Origin: a virus | Lineage: Duplodnaviria > Heunggongvirae > Uroviricota > Caudoviricetes | Direction: 5' to 3' (one strand) | Virus record (IMG/VR): IMGVR_UViG_2513237200_000007 | DNA length: 47,685 nucleotides | In this document: piece after piece, positions 15,924-21,473 of the stretch | Layout of the letters: each line of letters starts with the position of its first letter | Numbering within the stretch: the stretch's first letter is position 1 | The notes under the pieces: model-generated | The model's input: only the letters and a program-made list of their open reading frames with translations | The model's database searches: none | What the model was told of the DNA's origin: nothing | Made by a program: the position numbers and the translations under genes

Positions 15924-16676
15924 ATGAACCTTGAAGCCTTACCAAAATATTACTCCCCAAAATCTCCAAAATTGAGCGATGACGCTCCAGCGACAGGCAC
16001 CGGTTGTTTAACAATTACGGATGTAATGGCAGCGCAGGGGATGGTGCAGTCGAAAGCACCACTTGGGTTGGCCTTATTTCTGGCAAAAGTTGGTGTTCAG
16101 GACCCTCAGTTTGCGATTGAAGGCCTGCTAAATTACGCGATGGCACTGGATAACCCGACATTGAACAAATTGAGTGAAGAAATCCGGTTACAGATTATTC
16201 CTTACCTCGTGAGTTTTGCCTTTGCTGATTACTCCAGGTCTGCGGCAAGTAAGGCTCGCTGTGAGCATTGTTCAGGTACGGGATTTTATAATGTATTGCG
16301 CGAAGTGGTGAAACACTACAGACGCGGGGAATCTGTAATCAAGGAAGAATGGGTGAAGGAACTATGTCAGCATTGCCATGGTAAGGGCGAAGCCAGCACA
16401 GCGTGCAGAGGGTGTAAGGGTAAAGGGATTGTTCTGGATGAAAAAAGAACCCGGTTTCATGGCGTACCGGTATATAAGATTTGTGGGCGTTGTAATGGAA
16501 ACCGGTTTAGTCGTTTACCGACCACGCTGGCACGACGTCATGTCCAGAAGCTGGTACCAGACCTGACCGATTATCAGTGGTATAAGGGGTATGCGGACGT
16601 CATTGGTAAACTGGTAACAAAGTGCTGGCAGGAAGAAGCATACGCGGAAGCGCAATTGAGGAAGGTGACGAGATAA
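15924..16676 (+). CDS. quuQ: late-gene antiterminator Q-like protein
   Basis: 250 aa from MNLEALPKYYSPKSPK; CxxC...CxxC zinc-binding region (CEHCSGTGFY...CQHCHGKGE...CRGCKGKG); immediately followed by a late-promoter-like element and terminator. Confidence 0.8.
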   Translation: MNLEALPKYYSPKSPKLSDDAPATGTGCLTITDVMAAQGMVQSKAPLGLALFLAKVGVQDPQFAIEGLLNYAMALDNPTLNKLSEEIRLQIIPYLVSFAFADYSRSAASKARCEHCSGTGFYNVLREVVKHYRRGESVIKEEWVKELCQHCHGKGEASTACRGCKGKGIVLDEKRTRFHGVPVYKICGRCNGNRFSRLPTTLARRHVQKLVPDLTDYQWYKGYADVIGKLVTKCWQEEAYAEAQLRKVTR

Positions 16677-16707
16677 ATGATTTTTGCTGAAGATGGCGAC
16701 ATGATGT

Positions 16708-16736
16708 TTGCATTTTTCAAAAAATATGGATAAAAT
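16708..16736 (+). promoter_or_regulatory. pR'-like late promoter downstream of Q
   Basis: -35 TTGCAT (16708-16713), 17-nt spacer, -10 TAAAAT (16731-16736). Confidence 0.5.
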
Positions 16737-16782
16737 TTTTTCAACGATGGGCTTTGTATACCCGACGTTAAGAAAAAGTAGA

Positions 16783-16812
16783 AAACCCGCTGATGAGCGG
16801 GTTTTGTGCTTT
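16783..16812 (+). terminator. tR'-like intrinsic terminator of a short late leader transcript
   Basis: Hairpin AACCCGCT-GATG-AGCGGGTT followed by TTGTGCTTT, about 50 nt downstream of the predicted late-promoter start site. Confidence 0.5.
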
Positions 16813-17097
16813 AAATGGGGCAATGGTAATGTTGAATCTCATCCCGGGACTCATGTCTGTTAACTTATTATTTAGCTGGTGACTTGGTTATTTGCCTGAT
16901 GTTTAAAATGTTTTCTTCCAGTACAATGTCCCTAAACACAATGAGTCTGCTTATTATATTATTAGCAGAGCTATTACGGCCAAAGTACAGCATAAGCTTT
17001 TAAAGCCAATCAACCAGTCATCAAGACAGACGGGGTTATTCATAAAAACTCTCCATGTGTGATCCGATGGGGCCTGAAATTAAAGCTTTAATATAGC

Positions 17098-17310
17098 TCA
17101 TGAAAGGTAAACATTGGCAGCTGAAGGGCCACGCAGACCATTTATCCGGCAAAATTCCACGCGTAATCCGGTGGTAATTTCTTCTGCATCGCGGAGATTG
17201 AGCGCTGAAACATGAAGCTGGACATCGATACGACCATCGGATGGGGTGATAAGACCCTTGCCGCTTTTGCCGTCAAAGGTTTTGACAATTCCTGTCATTT
17301 TACGGGACAA
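17098..17310 (-). CDS. cspF: cold-shock-domain protein CspF-like
   Basis: 70 aa, [38 protein letters not shown]...; CSD fold motifs. Confidence 0.85.
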
Positions 17311-17610
17311 AAAAATTCCTTAATACTGATAACTTGGCGCACTATACACACGTTCCTGAAGAAAGCTATAGTTTTTTGATGGGGTTGAAGATGGCTGGAT
17401 GTCTAAAATAAACATTGCTTCATATGTTCAACTATGCGTTAATGATTGCGTCGGTTTGAAGAACAGACGATATACGAAGTAGTTTACTAAAGCAGTTCTC
17501 ATTTCAGGTGTTATTCACTTATTCCTTCTTTGAGTCTCTCCAATTAAGTACGAAGTCGTTTCTGTTATGCAAACCATTTATGCCGAAAGGCTCAAGTTAA
17601 GGAATGTAGA

Positions 17611-17826
17611 ATGTCAAATAAAATGACTGGTTTAGTAAAATGGTTTAACGCTGATAAAGGTTTCGGCTTTATTTCTCCTGTTGATGGTAGTAAAGATGTG
17701 TTTGTGCATTTTTCTGCGATTCAGAATGATAATTATCGAACCTTATTTGAAGGTCAAAAGGTTACCTTCTCTATAGAGAGTGGTGCTAAAGGTCCTGCAG
17801 CAGCAAATGTCATCATTACTGATTAA
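17611..17826 (+). CDS. cspB: cold-shock protein CspB-like
   Basis: 71 aa, [38 protein letters not shown]...; RNP1/RNP2 motifs; long 5' leader typical of csp genes. Confidence 0.9.
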
Positions 17827-18107
17827 AATTCATCGCTCGTCTGTATACGATAACGAAGAAGGCTGATGCCTGAGTAGAGATACGGACAGAGTAGTGAATA
17901 TTGGATCTCTTTAATAAAAAGTAAGGAGGTCCAATACATGAAACAATGGCTAGCATATTTGGCAAAATCTTAATCAGGAAAAGTATGCTAACCATTGTGG
18001 TGAAGTGCAGGTTTGCTGCATGAATAGTTTTACAGCAGAAGCTAACTGCTGGCATGGCAAAACAAAGTGCGTAAGTGGATGACTCCCACAAAAAGCACCA
18101 CAATCTC

Positions 18108-18131
18108 AAACCCGCTCAGGCGGGTTTTTTA
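18108..18131 (+). terminator. rho-independent terminator after cspB
   Basis: Hairpin AAACCCGC-TCAG-GCGGGTTT followed by T-run. Confidence 0.6.
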
Positions 18132-18219: not shown

Positions 18220-18228
18220 TACTTTGTT
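18220..18228. repeat. 9-bp target-site duplication (left copy) of IS10
   Basis: TACTTTGTT immediately flanks both IS10 ends (18220-18228 and 19558-19566). Confidence 0.8.
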
Positions 18229-19557
18229 CTGAGAGATCCCCTCATAATTTCCCCAAAGCGTAACCATGTGTGAATAAATTTTGAGCTAGTAGGGTTGCAG
18301 CCACGAGTAAGTCTTCCCTTGTTATTGTGTAGCCAGAATGCCGCAAAACTTCCATGCCTAAGCGAACTGTTGAGAGTACGTTTCGATTTCTGACTGTGTT
18401 AGCCTGGAAGTGCTTGTCCCAACCTTGTTTCTGAGCATGAACGCCCGCAAGCCAACATGTTAGTTGAAGCATCAGGGCGATTAGCAGCATGATATCAAAA
18501 CGCTCTGAGCTGCTCGTTCGGCTATGGCGTAGGCCTAGTCCGTAGGCAGGACTTTTCAAGTCTCGGAAGGTTTCTTCAATCTGCATTCGCTTCGAATAGA
18601 TATTAACAAGTTGTTTGGGTGTTCGAATTTCAACAGGTAAGTTAGTTGCTAGAACCCATGGCTCCTTTGCCGACGCTGAGTAGATTTTAGGTGACGGGTG
18701 GTGACAATGAGTCCGTGTCGAGCGCTGATTTTTTCGGCCTTTAGAGCGAGATTTATACAATAGAATTTGGCATGAGATTGGATTGCTTTTAGTCAGCCTC
18801 TTATAGCCTAAAGTCTTTGAGTGACTAGATGACATATCATGTAAGTTGCTGATAGGTTTCCAGTTTTCCGCTCCTAGGTCTGCATATTGTACTTTTCCTC
18901 TTACTCGACTTAACCAGTACCAACCCAGCTTCTCAACGGATTTATACCATGGCACTTTAAAGCCAGCATCACTGACAATGAGCGGTGTGGTGTTACTCGG
19001 TAGAATGCTCGCAAGGTCGGCTAGAAATTGGTCATGAGCTTTCTTTGAACATTGCTCTGAAAGCGGGAACGCTTTCTCATAAAGAGTAACAGAACGACCG
19101 TGTAGTGCGACTGAAGCTCGCAATACCATAAGTCGTTTTTGCTCACGAATATCAGACCAGTCAACAAGTACAATGGGCATCGTATTGCCCGAACAGATAA
19201 AGCTAGCATGCCAACGGTATACAGCGAGTCGCTCTTTGTGGAGGTGACGATTACCTAACAATCGGTCGATTCGTTTGATGTTATGTTTTGTTCTCGCTTT
19301 GGTTGGCAGGTTACGGCCAAGTTCGGTAAGAGTGAGAGTTTTACAGTCAAGTAATGCGTGGCAAGCCAACGTTAAGCTGTTGAGTCGTTTTAAGTGTAAT
19401 TCGGGGCAGAATTGGTAAAGAGAGTCGTGTAAAATATCGAGTTCGCACATCTTGTTGTCTGATTATTGATTTTTCGCGAAACCATTTGATCATATGACAA
19501 GATGTGTATCCACCTTAACTTAATGATTTTTACCAAAATCATTAGGGGATTCATCAG
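18229..19557 (-). mobile_element. complete IS10 (1329 bp)
   Basis: Inside end CTGAGAGATCCCCTCATAATTTCCCC at 18229; outside end ...GGGGATTCATCAG ending at 19557; single 402-aa transposase; flanked by 9-bp direct repeat. Confidence 0.95.
18242..19450 (-). CDS. IS10 transposase
   Basis: 402 aa, MCELDILHDSLYQFCPELHLKRLNSLTLACHALLDCKTLTLTELGRNL..., recognised as the IS10/Tn10 transposase. Confidence 0.95.
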   Translation of the reverse strand: MCELDILHDSLYQFCPELHLKRLNSLTLACHALLDCKTLTLTELGRNLPTKARTKHNIKRIDRLLGNRHLHKERLAVYRWHASFICSGNTMPIVLVDWSDIREQKRLMVLRASVALHGRSVTLYEKAFPLSEQCSKKAHDQFLADLASILPSNTTPLIVSDAGFKVPWYKSVEKLGWYWLSRVRGKVQYADLGAENWKPISNLHDMSSSHSKTLGYKRLTKSNPISCQILLYKSRSKGRKNQRSTRTHCHHPSPKIYSASAKEPWVLATNLPVEIRTPKQLVNIYSKRMQIEETFRDLKSPAYGLGLRHSRTSSSERFDIMLLIALMLQLTCWLAGVHAQKQGWDKHFQANTVRNRNVLSTVRLGMEVLRHSGYTITREDLLVAATLLAQNLFTHGYALGKL

Positions 19558-19566
19558 TACTTTGTT
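19558..19566. repeat. 9-bp target-site duplication (right copy) of IS10
   Basis: TACTTTGTT, identical to 18220-18228. Confidence 0.8.
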
Positions 19567-19698
19567 GCAATGAGGGCAGATCAAAAGGGCACCTTTTTGT
19601 ACTCTTGAAAAACTGTGTTCTGACTCTTGGGTGCAGTTTGGGCAGGAACATTTAACGAGATAATTACGGCGTGATTTTGAGTTTTTACGTTCTGACAT
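19558..19698 (-). pseudogene. small zinc-ribbon ORF interrupted by IS10 (originally about 56 aa)
   Basis: From ATG 19696-19698: MSERKNSKSRRNYLVKCSCPNCTQESEHSFSRVQKGALLICPHCNKV, then reads into IS10. Joining across the element using the duplicated 9 bp restores ...CNKVFQTNLKAVA-stop (stop at 18190-18192). Confidence 0.5.
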
Positions 19699-19917: not shown

Positions 19918-20133
19918 ATGAAATCAATGGATAAGTTAACAACAGGTGTTGCCTATGGCACATCGGCGGGTAATGCTGGTTTCTGGGCATTGCAGTTACT
20001 CGATAAAGTAACTCCGTCACAGTGGGCTGCAATCGGTGTGCTGGGTAGCCTGGTTTTTGGCCTGCTGACGTATCTGACAAATCTTTATTTCAAGATTAAA
20101 GAAGACAGGCGTAAGGCTGCGAGAGGAGAGTAA
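19918..20133 (+). CDS. essQ: holin (phage 21 S-like class II holin)
   Basis: 71 aa from [71 protein letters not shown]; two TM segments and charged C-terminus. Confidence 0.85.
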
Positions 20134-20137
20134 TCCA

Positions 20138-20445
20138 ATGACTCAAGACTATGAACTGGTTGTGAAAGGAGTCCGTAATTTTGAGAATAAAGTTACGGTA
20201 ACTGTAGCCTTACAGGACAAAGAACGCTTTGACGGTGAAATTTTTGACCTGGATGTCGCCATGGACCGTGTTGAAGGAGCTGCGCTGGAGTTTTATGAGG
20301 CAGCAGCCAGAAGGAGCGTCCGGCAAGTCTTCCTGGAAGTAGCAGAAAAATTGTCAGAAAAAGTTGAGTCTTATCTGCAGCATCAGTACTCCTTTAAGAT
20401 TGAAAATCCTGCCAATAAGCACGAGCGTCCTCATCATAAATATCT

Positions 20446-20449
<4 letters not shown>
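20138..20449 (+). CDS. ydfR: YdfR-like protein (DUF1327) between holin and endolysin
   Basis: 103-aa ORF, tightly packed in the lysis cassette; stop overlaps the endolysin start. Confidence 0.7.

Positions 20450-21473
<1,024 letters not shown>

Follow-up and report, generated by a model that had tools for sequence, protein, structure and literature searches.

A candidate lambda-type late-gene switch downstream of quuQ in the Qin prophage region of Escherichia coli K-12

What occupies the intergenic stretch directly behind the antiterminator gene quuQ (ydfT) of the Qin cryptic prophage, and can it still serve the lysis genes that lie kilobases beyond it? We addressed this question in a 47,685-nt stretch of DNA (virus record IMGVR_UViG_2513237200_000007; the window hereafter), which corresponds to the Qin region of an E. 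coli K-12-type chromosome. Many E. coli genomes, DH5alpha among them, match the 1.6 kb around the site at 100% identity. A window position x converts to MG1655 coordinate 1642489 - (x - 16676), and the window's plus strand is the minus strand of MG1655. With annotation transferred from DH5alpha and MG1655, the gene order reads ydfU and ydfT/quuQ (plus), ynfS and cspF (minus), cspB (plus), ynfU (minus), then essQ, ydfR, rrrQ and rzpQ (plus). The RefSeq record of MG1655 has no annotated feature between ynfS and ydfT, and literature searches for quuQ, ydfT and the Qin late promoter turned up no account of the site.

We consider it very probable that this site is the late-gene switch of Qin, made up of a lambda-type pR' promoter, a Q-binding site, a sigma70-dependent pause element and the terminator tR'. 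This reading is built on the elements themselves, their homology and conservation, the family of the Q protein, and an RNA 3' end, all of which can be observed. A first-pass annotation, made from the window's letters, had described a promoter and terminator after a Q-like gene as a Q-dependent pR'/tR' unit. That description is borne out by the membership of QuuQ in PF03589, by an alignment with lambda, P22 and phi80 that includes an AACGAT element overlooked at first, and by a 3' end mapped by Term-seq.

Promoter, pause element and their conservation

The established layout of a Q cassette is a Q gene followed by PR', a sigma-dependent pause element (SDPE) in the initial transcribed region, a terminator and the late genes (PMC9388147), with the Q-binding element (QBE) located between the -35 and -10 hexamers (PMC4914094). 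The Qin locus presents the same series. Directly upstream lies quuQ (15924-16676, plus strand), encoding a 250-amino-acid lambda-family Q antiterminator that matches PF03589 (E = 3.6e-54) and also PF00684, the latter reflecting a DnaJ-type zinc-finger insertion. Identity of QuuQ to lambda Q is 33%, and to the Q protein of phage PhiR42_1 it is 100%. Downstream follow a pause-element sequence, a terminator and, on the same strand, the lysis genes. As for the promoter, hexamers with a 17-bp spacing are present, conserved and homologous to annotated pR' sequences; their match to consensus, taken alone, is at chance level.

Direct reading placed all of the parts that the first-pass annotation had listed where it had put them, on the plus strand: the -35 hexamer TTGCAT (16708-16713, beginning 31 nt past the quuQ stop codon that ends at 16676), the 17-bp spacer TTTTCAAAAAATATGGA (16714-16730), the -10 hexamer TAAAAT (16731-16736), and the hairpin with its T-run. 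TTGCAT is invariant in 24 aligned variants and is the pR' -35 hexamer of the phi80 record, in which the Q site in the spacer, the -10 hexamer and the terminator are annotated too. TAAAAT was also returned by a consensus scan, and relatives carry TAAGAT or TAGGAT in its place. Within the spacer, the Qin element TTCAAAAAATATGG and lambda TTGAATAAAATTGG, aligned in register, agree at 10 of 14 positions; from this agreement and the conservation of the spacer among relatives, we regard TTCAAAAAATATGG as the putative Q-binding element.

The pause hexamer AACGAT (16743-16748) begins 6 nt past the -10 hexamer and, with its flank, forms AACGATGGG in the register of lambda pR'. The lambda promoter reads TTGACT-N17-TAAATT-TGACTC-AACGAT-GGG and that of Qin TTGCAT-N17-TAAAAT-TTTTTC-AACGAT-GGG; AACGAT, its 6-nt distance from the -10 hexamer and the GGG that follows are identical in the pR' of Qin, lambda and P22. 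In lambda pR', AACGAT is a -10-like element at which sigma70 pauses the early elongation complex, and its homology to the lambda and P22 elements predicts a sigma-dependent pause in Qin as well. In the P22 record, the first A of the hexamer is the probable 5' end of the late RNA, with t-late 30-58 nt beyond. By homology with that annotated end, the Qin transcript would begin at 16743, in agreement with the start near this position that had been proposed initially. The site has no 5'-end entry in the ROSE supplement, nor among the Cappable-seq entries listed.

The combination of elements is far more distinctive than the hexamers. Between 15500 and 22500, we counted 12 promoter-like sites as compared to 14.8 expected in shuffled sequences, so the hexamers alone are not above chance, and the consensus scan prefers a neighbouring register (TTTGCA, 18 bp, TAAAAT; 9 of 12 matches). 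A single copy of the composite TTG-N20-TANNNT-N6-AACGATGGG is present in the window, where 0.02 would be expected.

Conservation was assessed in 88 IMG/VR and GenBank phage loci that carry a QuuQ-like gene; they contain about 30 distinct versions of the 160 nt downstream of the gene. Little or no variation is seen in the -35 hexamer, the spacer (TTTTCAAAAAAYMTGG), the -10 region and AACGATGGGCTTTGT, and the rest of the leader is variable. The tR' hairpin is exchanged in relatives for other GC-rich hairpins with T-runs (GAACCCGCC..GAGCGGGTTTTTTT, AAACCTCGCTTCGGCGGGGTTTTT, GAAACCGCC..GAGCGGTTTTTT), most of which fold well, such that pairing is kept and sequence changed; past the hairpin, the sequences of relatives are unrelated. 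Judged by these alignments, the pattern is that expected of a Q/pR'/tR' module in mosaic lambdoid genomes. It also bears on the idea that the conserved stretch encodes a small protein, to which we give almost no credence. A 51-codon open reading frame does span 16708-16863 on the plus strand, and it is annotated as hypothetical in PhiR42_1 and HannyBb. Yet its start codon is a TTG that belongs to the -35 hexamer, indels of 1 and 2 nt interrupt it in relatives, whose sequences diverge completely past the hairpin, conservation peaks in the promoter part and is not codon-like, and the RNA ends inside the frame, at 16809. Given the indels, the divergence and this 3' end, the frame is very likely a false gene call.

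A wider sample, with one genome per species and an alignment of seven Q-family proteins as query, extended the arrangement to dozens of enterobacterial genera, in which a promoter, about 6 nt and an AACGAT-like hexamer lie downstream of Q. Most members have AACGAT itself, and the variants are AACGCT, AACAAT, AACACT, AATGAT, AATCAT and CATCGT. Leaders in this sample are either short and terminated or long as in lambda.

Two observations from these comparisons concern individual records. In phage HannyBb (locus L008, 1793-3650), the unit directly 3' of Q is degenerate (TTGTAT, no good -10 hexamer, AATGATGAG), and a well-conserved copy of pR', SDPE and tR' lies 1.7 kb downstream, behind a 77%-identical remnant of the 3' end of Q; the working late promoter of this phage seems to have become separated from the Q gene. 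Qin-like or lambda-like Q loci were also found in assemblies labelled Veillonella, Chryseobacterium, Pseudomonas, Oceanobacillus, Shewanella, Bradyrhizobium, Kitasatospora and others (L099, L118, L131 and L164-L175, the last series being near-identical matches of lambda Q length). Such loci probably reflect binning errors or contamination with lambda DNA, and not true host range.

The terminator and the RNA 3' end

The terminator hairpin AAAACCCGCT-GATG-AGCGGGTTTT occupies 16782-16805, begins 45 nt past the -10 hexamer and 39 nt past the putative +1, and is followed by GTGCTTT (tR' as a whole, 16782-16812). On the plus strand its T-run is interrupted (TTTTGTGCTTT), which is why the scan accepts only the minus-strand orientation. 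Termination of plus-strand RNA is nonetheless indicated by Term-seq of wild-type MG1655 (Adams et al., 2021; PMC7815308, Supplementary file 1), which records a 3' end at 1642356 on the minus strand, corresponding to window position 16809, the C of GGGTTTTGTGC. We checked the format of this table on sgrS (50 nt upstream, the 3' end base, 10 nt downstream), and the flanks listed for our site match exactly. The end is classed as "orphan", its coordinate prefix appears three times in the file, and its mean reads in two culture conditions were 103,591 and 55,368. Counts in the same table of 66,698 for sokC and 6,222 for sgrS place it within the range of well-expressed RNAs. With a start at 16743 and an end at 16809, the pR' transcript would be 67 nt long. 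The leader RNA folds at -30.4 kcal/mol (z = -6.1 as compared to shuffles) into a 5' hairpin (16743-16769) and the terminator.

Further 3' ends lie downstream on the plus strand. One at 16977 is weaker, antisense to ynfS, and situated at a small AT-rich hairpin. Another at about 17939-17941 (MG1655 1641224/1641226, minus) reaches 1.2 million reads, about 113 nt past the cspB stop codon and well ahead of the cspB terminator at 18108-18127. Together, they suggest either a leaky tR' or processing of the cspB 3' untranslated region.

Judged from the scan, the Term-seq end and the relatives, the terminator appears to work in both directions, for pR' on the plus strand and for cspF-ynfS on the minus strand. 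An A-rich linker AAGAAAAAGTAG (16770-16781, plus strand) lengthens the terminator stem and supplies a T-run to the minus strand: AAGAAAAAGTAGAAAA lies upstream of the stem, and the minus strand thus reads the stem and then TTTTCTACTTTTTC. From 150 nt away, cspF and ynfS converge on it. Each of the 63 loci that have a convergent csp gene carries the A-rich arm, and the 21 loci with a non-A-rich arm all lack such a gene; all carriers belong to one cspF-linked haplotype, so the association is confounded by descent. The Term-seq table has no minus-strand (MG1655 plus) 3' end at the hairpin, perhaps owing to silence of cspF at 37 C. A second supplementary table of PMC7815308 contains a site at MG1655 1643015 plus (window about 16150, minus), inside quuQ and antisense to ydfT, possibly from cspF-side transcription that crosses the terminator into quuQ.

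These features raise the question of whether the hairpin does no more than terminate the convergent ydfU-quuQ and cspF-ynfS transcripts from either side, the hexamers being chance matches at which no RNA starts. The chance-level promoter scan, the minus-strand-only call, the A-rich arm that goes with a convergent cspF, and the position of the "orphan" end 133 nt past the quuQ stop, as in a long 3' untranslated region, would all fit. A chance promoter, though, would not stay invariant amid variable leader flanks, nor would the lambda pause hexamer be expected by chance in exactly the lambda register, and the cassette follows Q also in phages that lack cspF (SfV, Ayreon, F1055 and Stx2c phages). 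We therefore regard this explanation as quite improbable.

Several points do weigh against a late-gene switch. The promoter scan is at chance, the -35 hexamer agrees with consensus at three of six positions, and the -35-like TTGACT that stands 1 bp before the lambda pause element, and has a role of its own there, is TTTTTT in Qin. The plus-strand T-run breaks after four T, the 16809 end could come from quuQ mRNA running into the terminator, and the second plus-strand end at 16977 (MG1655 1642188), 168 nt past tR', suggests leaky termination. Expression of quuQ in the cryptic prophage is an assumption of this reading. Finally, the large zinc-finger insertion of QuuQ falls at the DNA-contacting arm of lambda Q, and details of binding may differ. 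Aligned with lambda and P22 Q, this CXXCXGXG DnaJ-type insertion occupies residues ~115-195, in the arm region; insertions of 45-80 residues are likewise found in phi80 Q and most enterobacterial relatives. The arm of lambda Q touches the promoter-distal half of the QBE and region 4 of sigma, and because the insertion occupies the arm, loading geometry in this larger subfamily may be different.

On the late-switch reading, which we prefer, sigma70 RNA polymerase would start at about 16743. Sigma would then re-bind the -10-like AACGAT within the first six transcribed bases, and the enzyme would pause a few bases downstream. When QuuQ is absent, polymerase would escape, terminate at the hairpin and release a 67-nt RNA ending at 16809. 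QuuQ, once made, would bind the spacer element and load onto the paused complex, which would then resist tR', the cspB terminator and Rho, and transcription would run through cspB (and here IS10) into essQ-ydfR-rrrQ-rzpQ. The start, the pause, QuuQ binding and readthrough into the lysis genes are the steps that we infer.

The short RNA and its predicted 5' hairpin

A cassette that is structurally intact could have kept only part of this output. In that case the short terminated RNA would be its sole working product, retained as a host-acting small RNA similar to StxS, and the lysis genes would no longer be driven. The abundance of the 3' end in uninduced MG1655 speaks for this, as does the predicted anatomy of the RNA: an A-rich linker (AAG AAA AAG) joins a 5' hairpin to a U-tailed terminator, an anatomy common among Hfq-binding RNAs. 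StxS itself provides a precedent, and antiterminated phage promoters have been proposed as a source of small RNAs (PMC7547250). The A-rich linker is explained equally well by bidirectional termination, though, and we found neither Hfq-binding nor target data for the Qin RNA. Moreover, quuQ is intact and identical to the Q gene product of an isolated phage, PhiR42_1, so the antitermination route is not visibly broken. We judge this small-RNA reading unlikely, though more probable than the chance and coding explanations above. At gathering threshold, no Rfam family covers 16676-16812; the weak permissive hits, all far below their cut-offs (isrK, 16.6 bits for a cut-off of 50; leader families, 15-18 bits), are chance matches driven by the terminator hairpin.

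The 5' arm of the predicted leader hairpin (16743-16769, plus strand; AACG/CGTT outer and TGGG/CCCG inner stem) is the pause hexamer itself. Across the family, in 47 curated leaders anchored on the hexamer, the first six bases are complementary to a segment between +13 and +33. Hexamer and downstream segment covary: AACGA pairs with UCGUU in lambda and P22 (AACG with CGUU in Qin), and other leaders have AACAA/UUGUU, AACAC/UGUU, AAUGA/UCAUU, UCGUG/CACGA, UCAU/AUGA and AUUAU/AUAAU. Duplex energy was -2.57 kcal/mol with a leader's own downstream part, as compared to -1.84 +/- 0.14 when these parts were exchanged, and none of 5000 permutations was as low; for 33 non-redundant leaders the values were -2.65 and -1.75 +/- 0.18, again with no permutation among 5000 as low. 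The effect is confined to the hexamer register: z was -5.2 at +1 and -4.4 at +2, as compared to -1.7 to +1.3 for six-base windows in the untranscribed -12 to -3 region. A cruder statistic, the length of the longest uninterrupted helix (G-U pairs included), reached only weak significance (39 of 2000 permutations). MAFFT with RNAalifold on 40 leaders returned no structure from what was an ungapped alignment; this result is uninformative, because loop lengths differ and the 3' arms are left unaligned.

The covariation is suggestive of a 5' hairpin common to lambda-family leaders, one that is possibly already known; it is unmentioned in the literature that we searched, a search that did not extend to the older lambda literature. 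We put forward, only tentatively, the joint proposal that the pause-hexamer RNA of the lambda family (+1 to +6) pairs with about +19 to +27 in a 5' hairpin that is kept by compensatory change and has a function of its own, and that the 67-nt Qin product is an unannotated small RNA of E. coli K-12. Such a hairpin might shield the 5' end of the short RNA and of the late mRNA from decay. Alternatively, it might act as a stopper, a bulky end behind the Q nozzle.

Cargo, IS10 and comparison with known late-gene switches

The lysis genes essQ (19918-20133), ydfR, rrrQ and rzpQ (19918-21473, plus strand; open reading frames and annotation) are presumably the first late genes. The first-pass annotation had asked whether Q-modified transcription could still reach them more than 3 kb away, past cspF, cspB and an IS10. 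The distance stands, at 3,175 nt from the putative +1 to the essQ ATG, of which 1,338 nt are IS10 and a 9-bp target duplication (TACTTTGTT, at 18221-18229 and 19559-19567). The ancestral gap is thus about 1.84 kb, and with it most of the concern falls away. The ancestral order recurs unchanged in phages 2H10 and PhiR42_1, which were deposited as isolates: Q and pR' are followed by an oppositely oriented cspF, then by a co-oriented cspB and the holin gene. SfV, Ayreon and F1055 carry the same cassette with 1.6-2.3 kb of other cargo, including further annotated terminators, ahead of the holin gene. Since phage relatives share the layout or have similar gaps, both the distance and the cold-shock genes are normal for the module. 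In Stx2c phages, tRNA genes lie 2.3 kb downstream of the cassette. Among relatives of the Qin locus, tRNA genes (Thr; Met and Arg) likewise follow tR' at L093 2546-2621, L094 2466-2718 and L004 9136-9368, as in Shiga toxin (Stx) phages; in Qin, the same cargo slot is taken by the cold-shock genes.

That cargo consists of ynfS (16954-17043) and cspF (17098-17310), both on the minus strand by DH5alpha/MG1655 annotation and convergent with pR', and of cspB (17611-17826, plus strand) with its own leader and an intrinsic terminator at 18108-18127 (annotation and scan); an Rfam cspA thermoregulator match lies at 17450-17842. The IS10 (18230-19558; 1,329 bp, ends read directly, a 402-amino-acid transposase frame on the minus strand) sits in ynfU, a minus-strand gene for a small putative zinc-binding protein placed by transferred annotation. 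Its junction was absent from all 5,426 complete E. coli genomes. Judged from these genomes and phages, only the IS10 is strain-specific, and the cspF-cspB cargo is ancestral.

Ahead of essQ, plus-strand transcription meets tR', the 16977 3' end, the cspB terminator and about 1.3 kb of untranslated IS10 antisense RNA, a stretch that would invite Rho. Q-loaded polymerase has been reported to ignore such obstacles across thousands of bp (PMC9388147; PMC4914094). On balance, we lean towards survival of Q-dependent lysis-gene expression after the IS10 insertion, with moderate confidence. Because the outside end of IS10 faces essQ, whose ATG lies 360 bp further on, pOUT and RNA-OUT (19443-19512, plus strand; RNA-OUT at 98.8 bits) point at the lysis genes. 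From work on Tn10, pOUT is able to drive adjacent genes, and a low Q-independent input from it may add to lysis-gene expression. An independent promoter downstream, which the first-pass annotation had set against a late role of pR', may in the form of pOUT coexist with it. The window also opens inside another IS10 of the same orientation (1-107, outside end at 107, RNA-OUT 1-62). This copy and the one at 18230-19558 flank about 18 kb of Qin, including dicF, relBE, hokD, quuQ, pR', cspF and cspB. Recombination between the two would delete the early and Q region and leave the lysis genes beside pOUT.

By every feature examined, the cassette is a previously unannotated copy of the textbook lambda-family Q system, and as such unsurprising to a specialist. 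It nevertheless gives a probable role to intergenic DNA that had carried no annotation in the best-studied of bacterial genomes, would explain an "orphan" Term-seq end as the Qin counterpart of lambda 6S RNA, and presents cspF and cspB as cargo in the slot that holds Shiga toxin genes in closely related phages. Since the Stx2c Q protein is 94% identical to QuuQ and is followed by the same cassette, QuuQ and Qin pR' could be a safe model in K-12 for the late control of Stx2c phages. Interest is modest, and lies in the abundant unannotated K-12 RNA of a predicted 67 nt, the Stx2c kinship and the covarying 5' hairpin; the IS10 question matters for this strain only.

Compared with the pR'-qut-6S RNA-tR' system of lambda, Qin has the same Q family, the same promoter geometry, a similar spacer and an identical register of AACGAT and GGG; lambda makes a terminated short RNA in the lysogen, as Qin presumably does. 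They differ in the leader, which is 194 nt in lambda with termination at +193 (PMC4914094) and 67 nt in Qin, in the sequence just upstream of the pause hexamer (TTGACT in lambda, TTTTTT in Qin), and in the DnaJ-type zinc-finger insertion, which QuuQ has and lambda Q lacks. P22 (P-late/gene 23/t-late) and phi80 (pR'/gene 17) resemble Qin in their short leaders, with a hairpin 30-60 nt past +1. Phi80 further shares the -35 hexamer TTGCAT and the long-arm type of Q, with AACGCT as its pause hexamer. In both of these phages the lysis genes follow within about 300-450 bp, whereas Qin has about 1.8 kb of cold-shock cargo. Stx phages, like Qin, carry cargo between pR'/tR' and the lysis genes, and they make a short terminated RNA constitutively, as Qin presumably does. 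StxS, which was characterised in the Sakai phages Sp5 (Stx2a) and Sp15 (Stx1), is processed from a longer RNA (PMC7547250); the Qin RNA is not known to have a regulatory role. In leader length and Q architecture, Qin comes closest to P22 and phi80; for cargo between tR' and the lysis genes, the best parallel is with the Stx phages.

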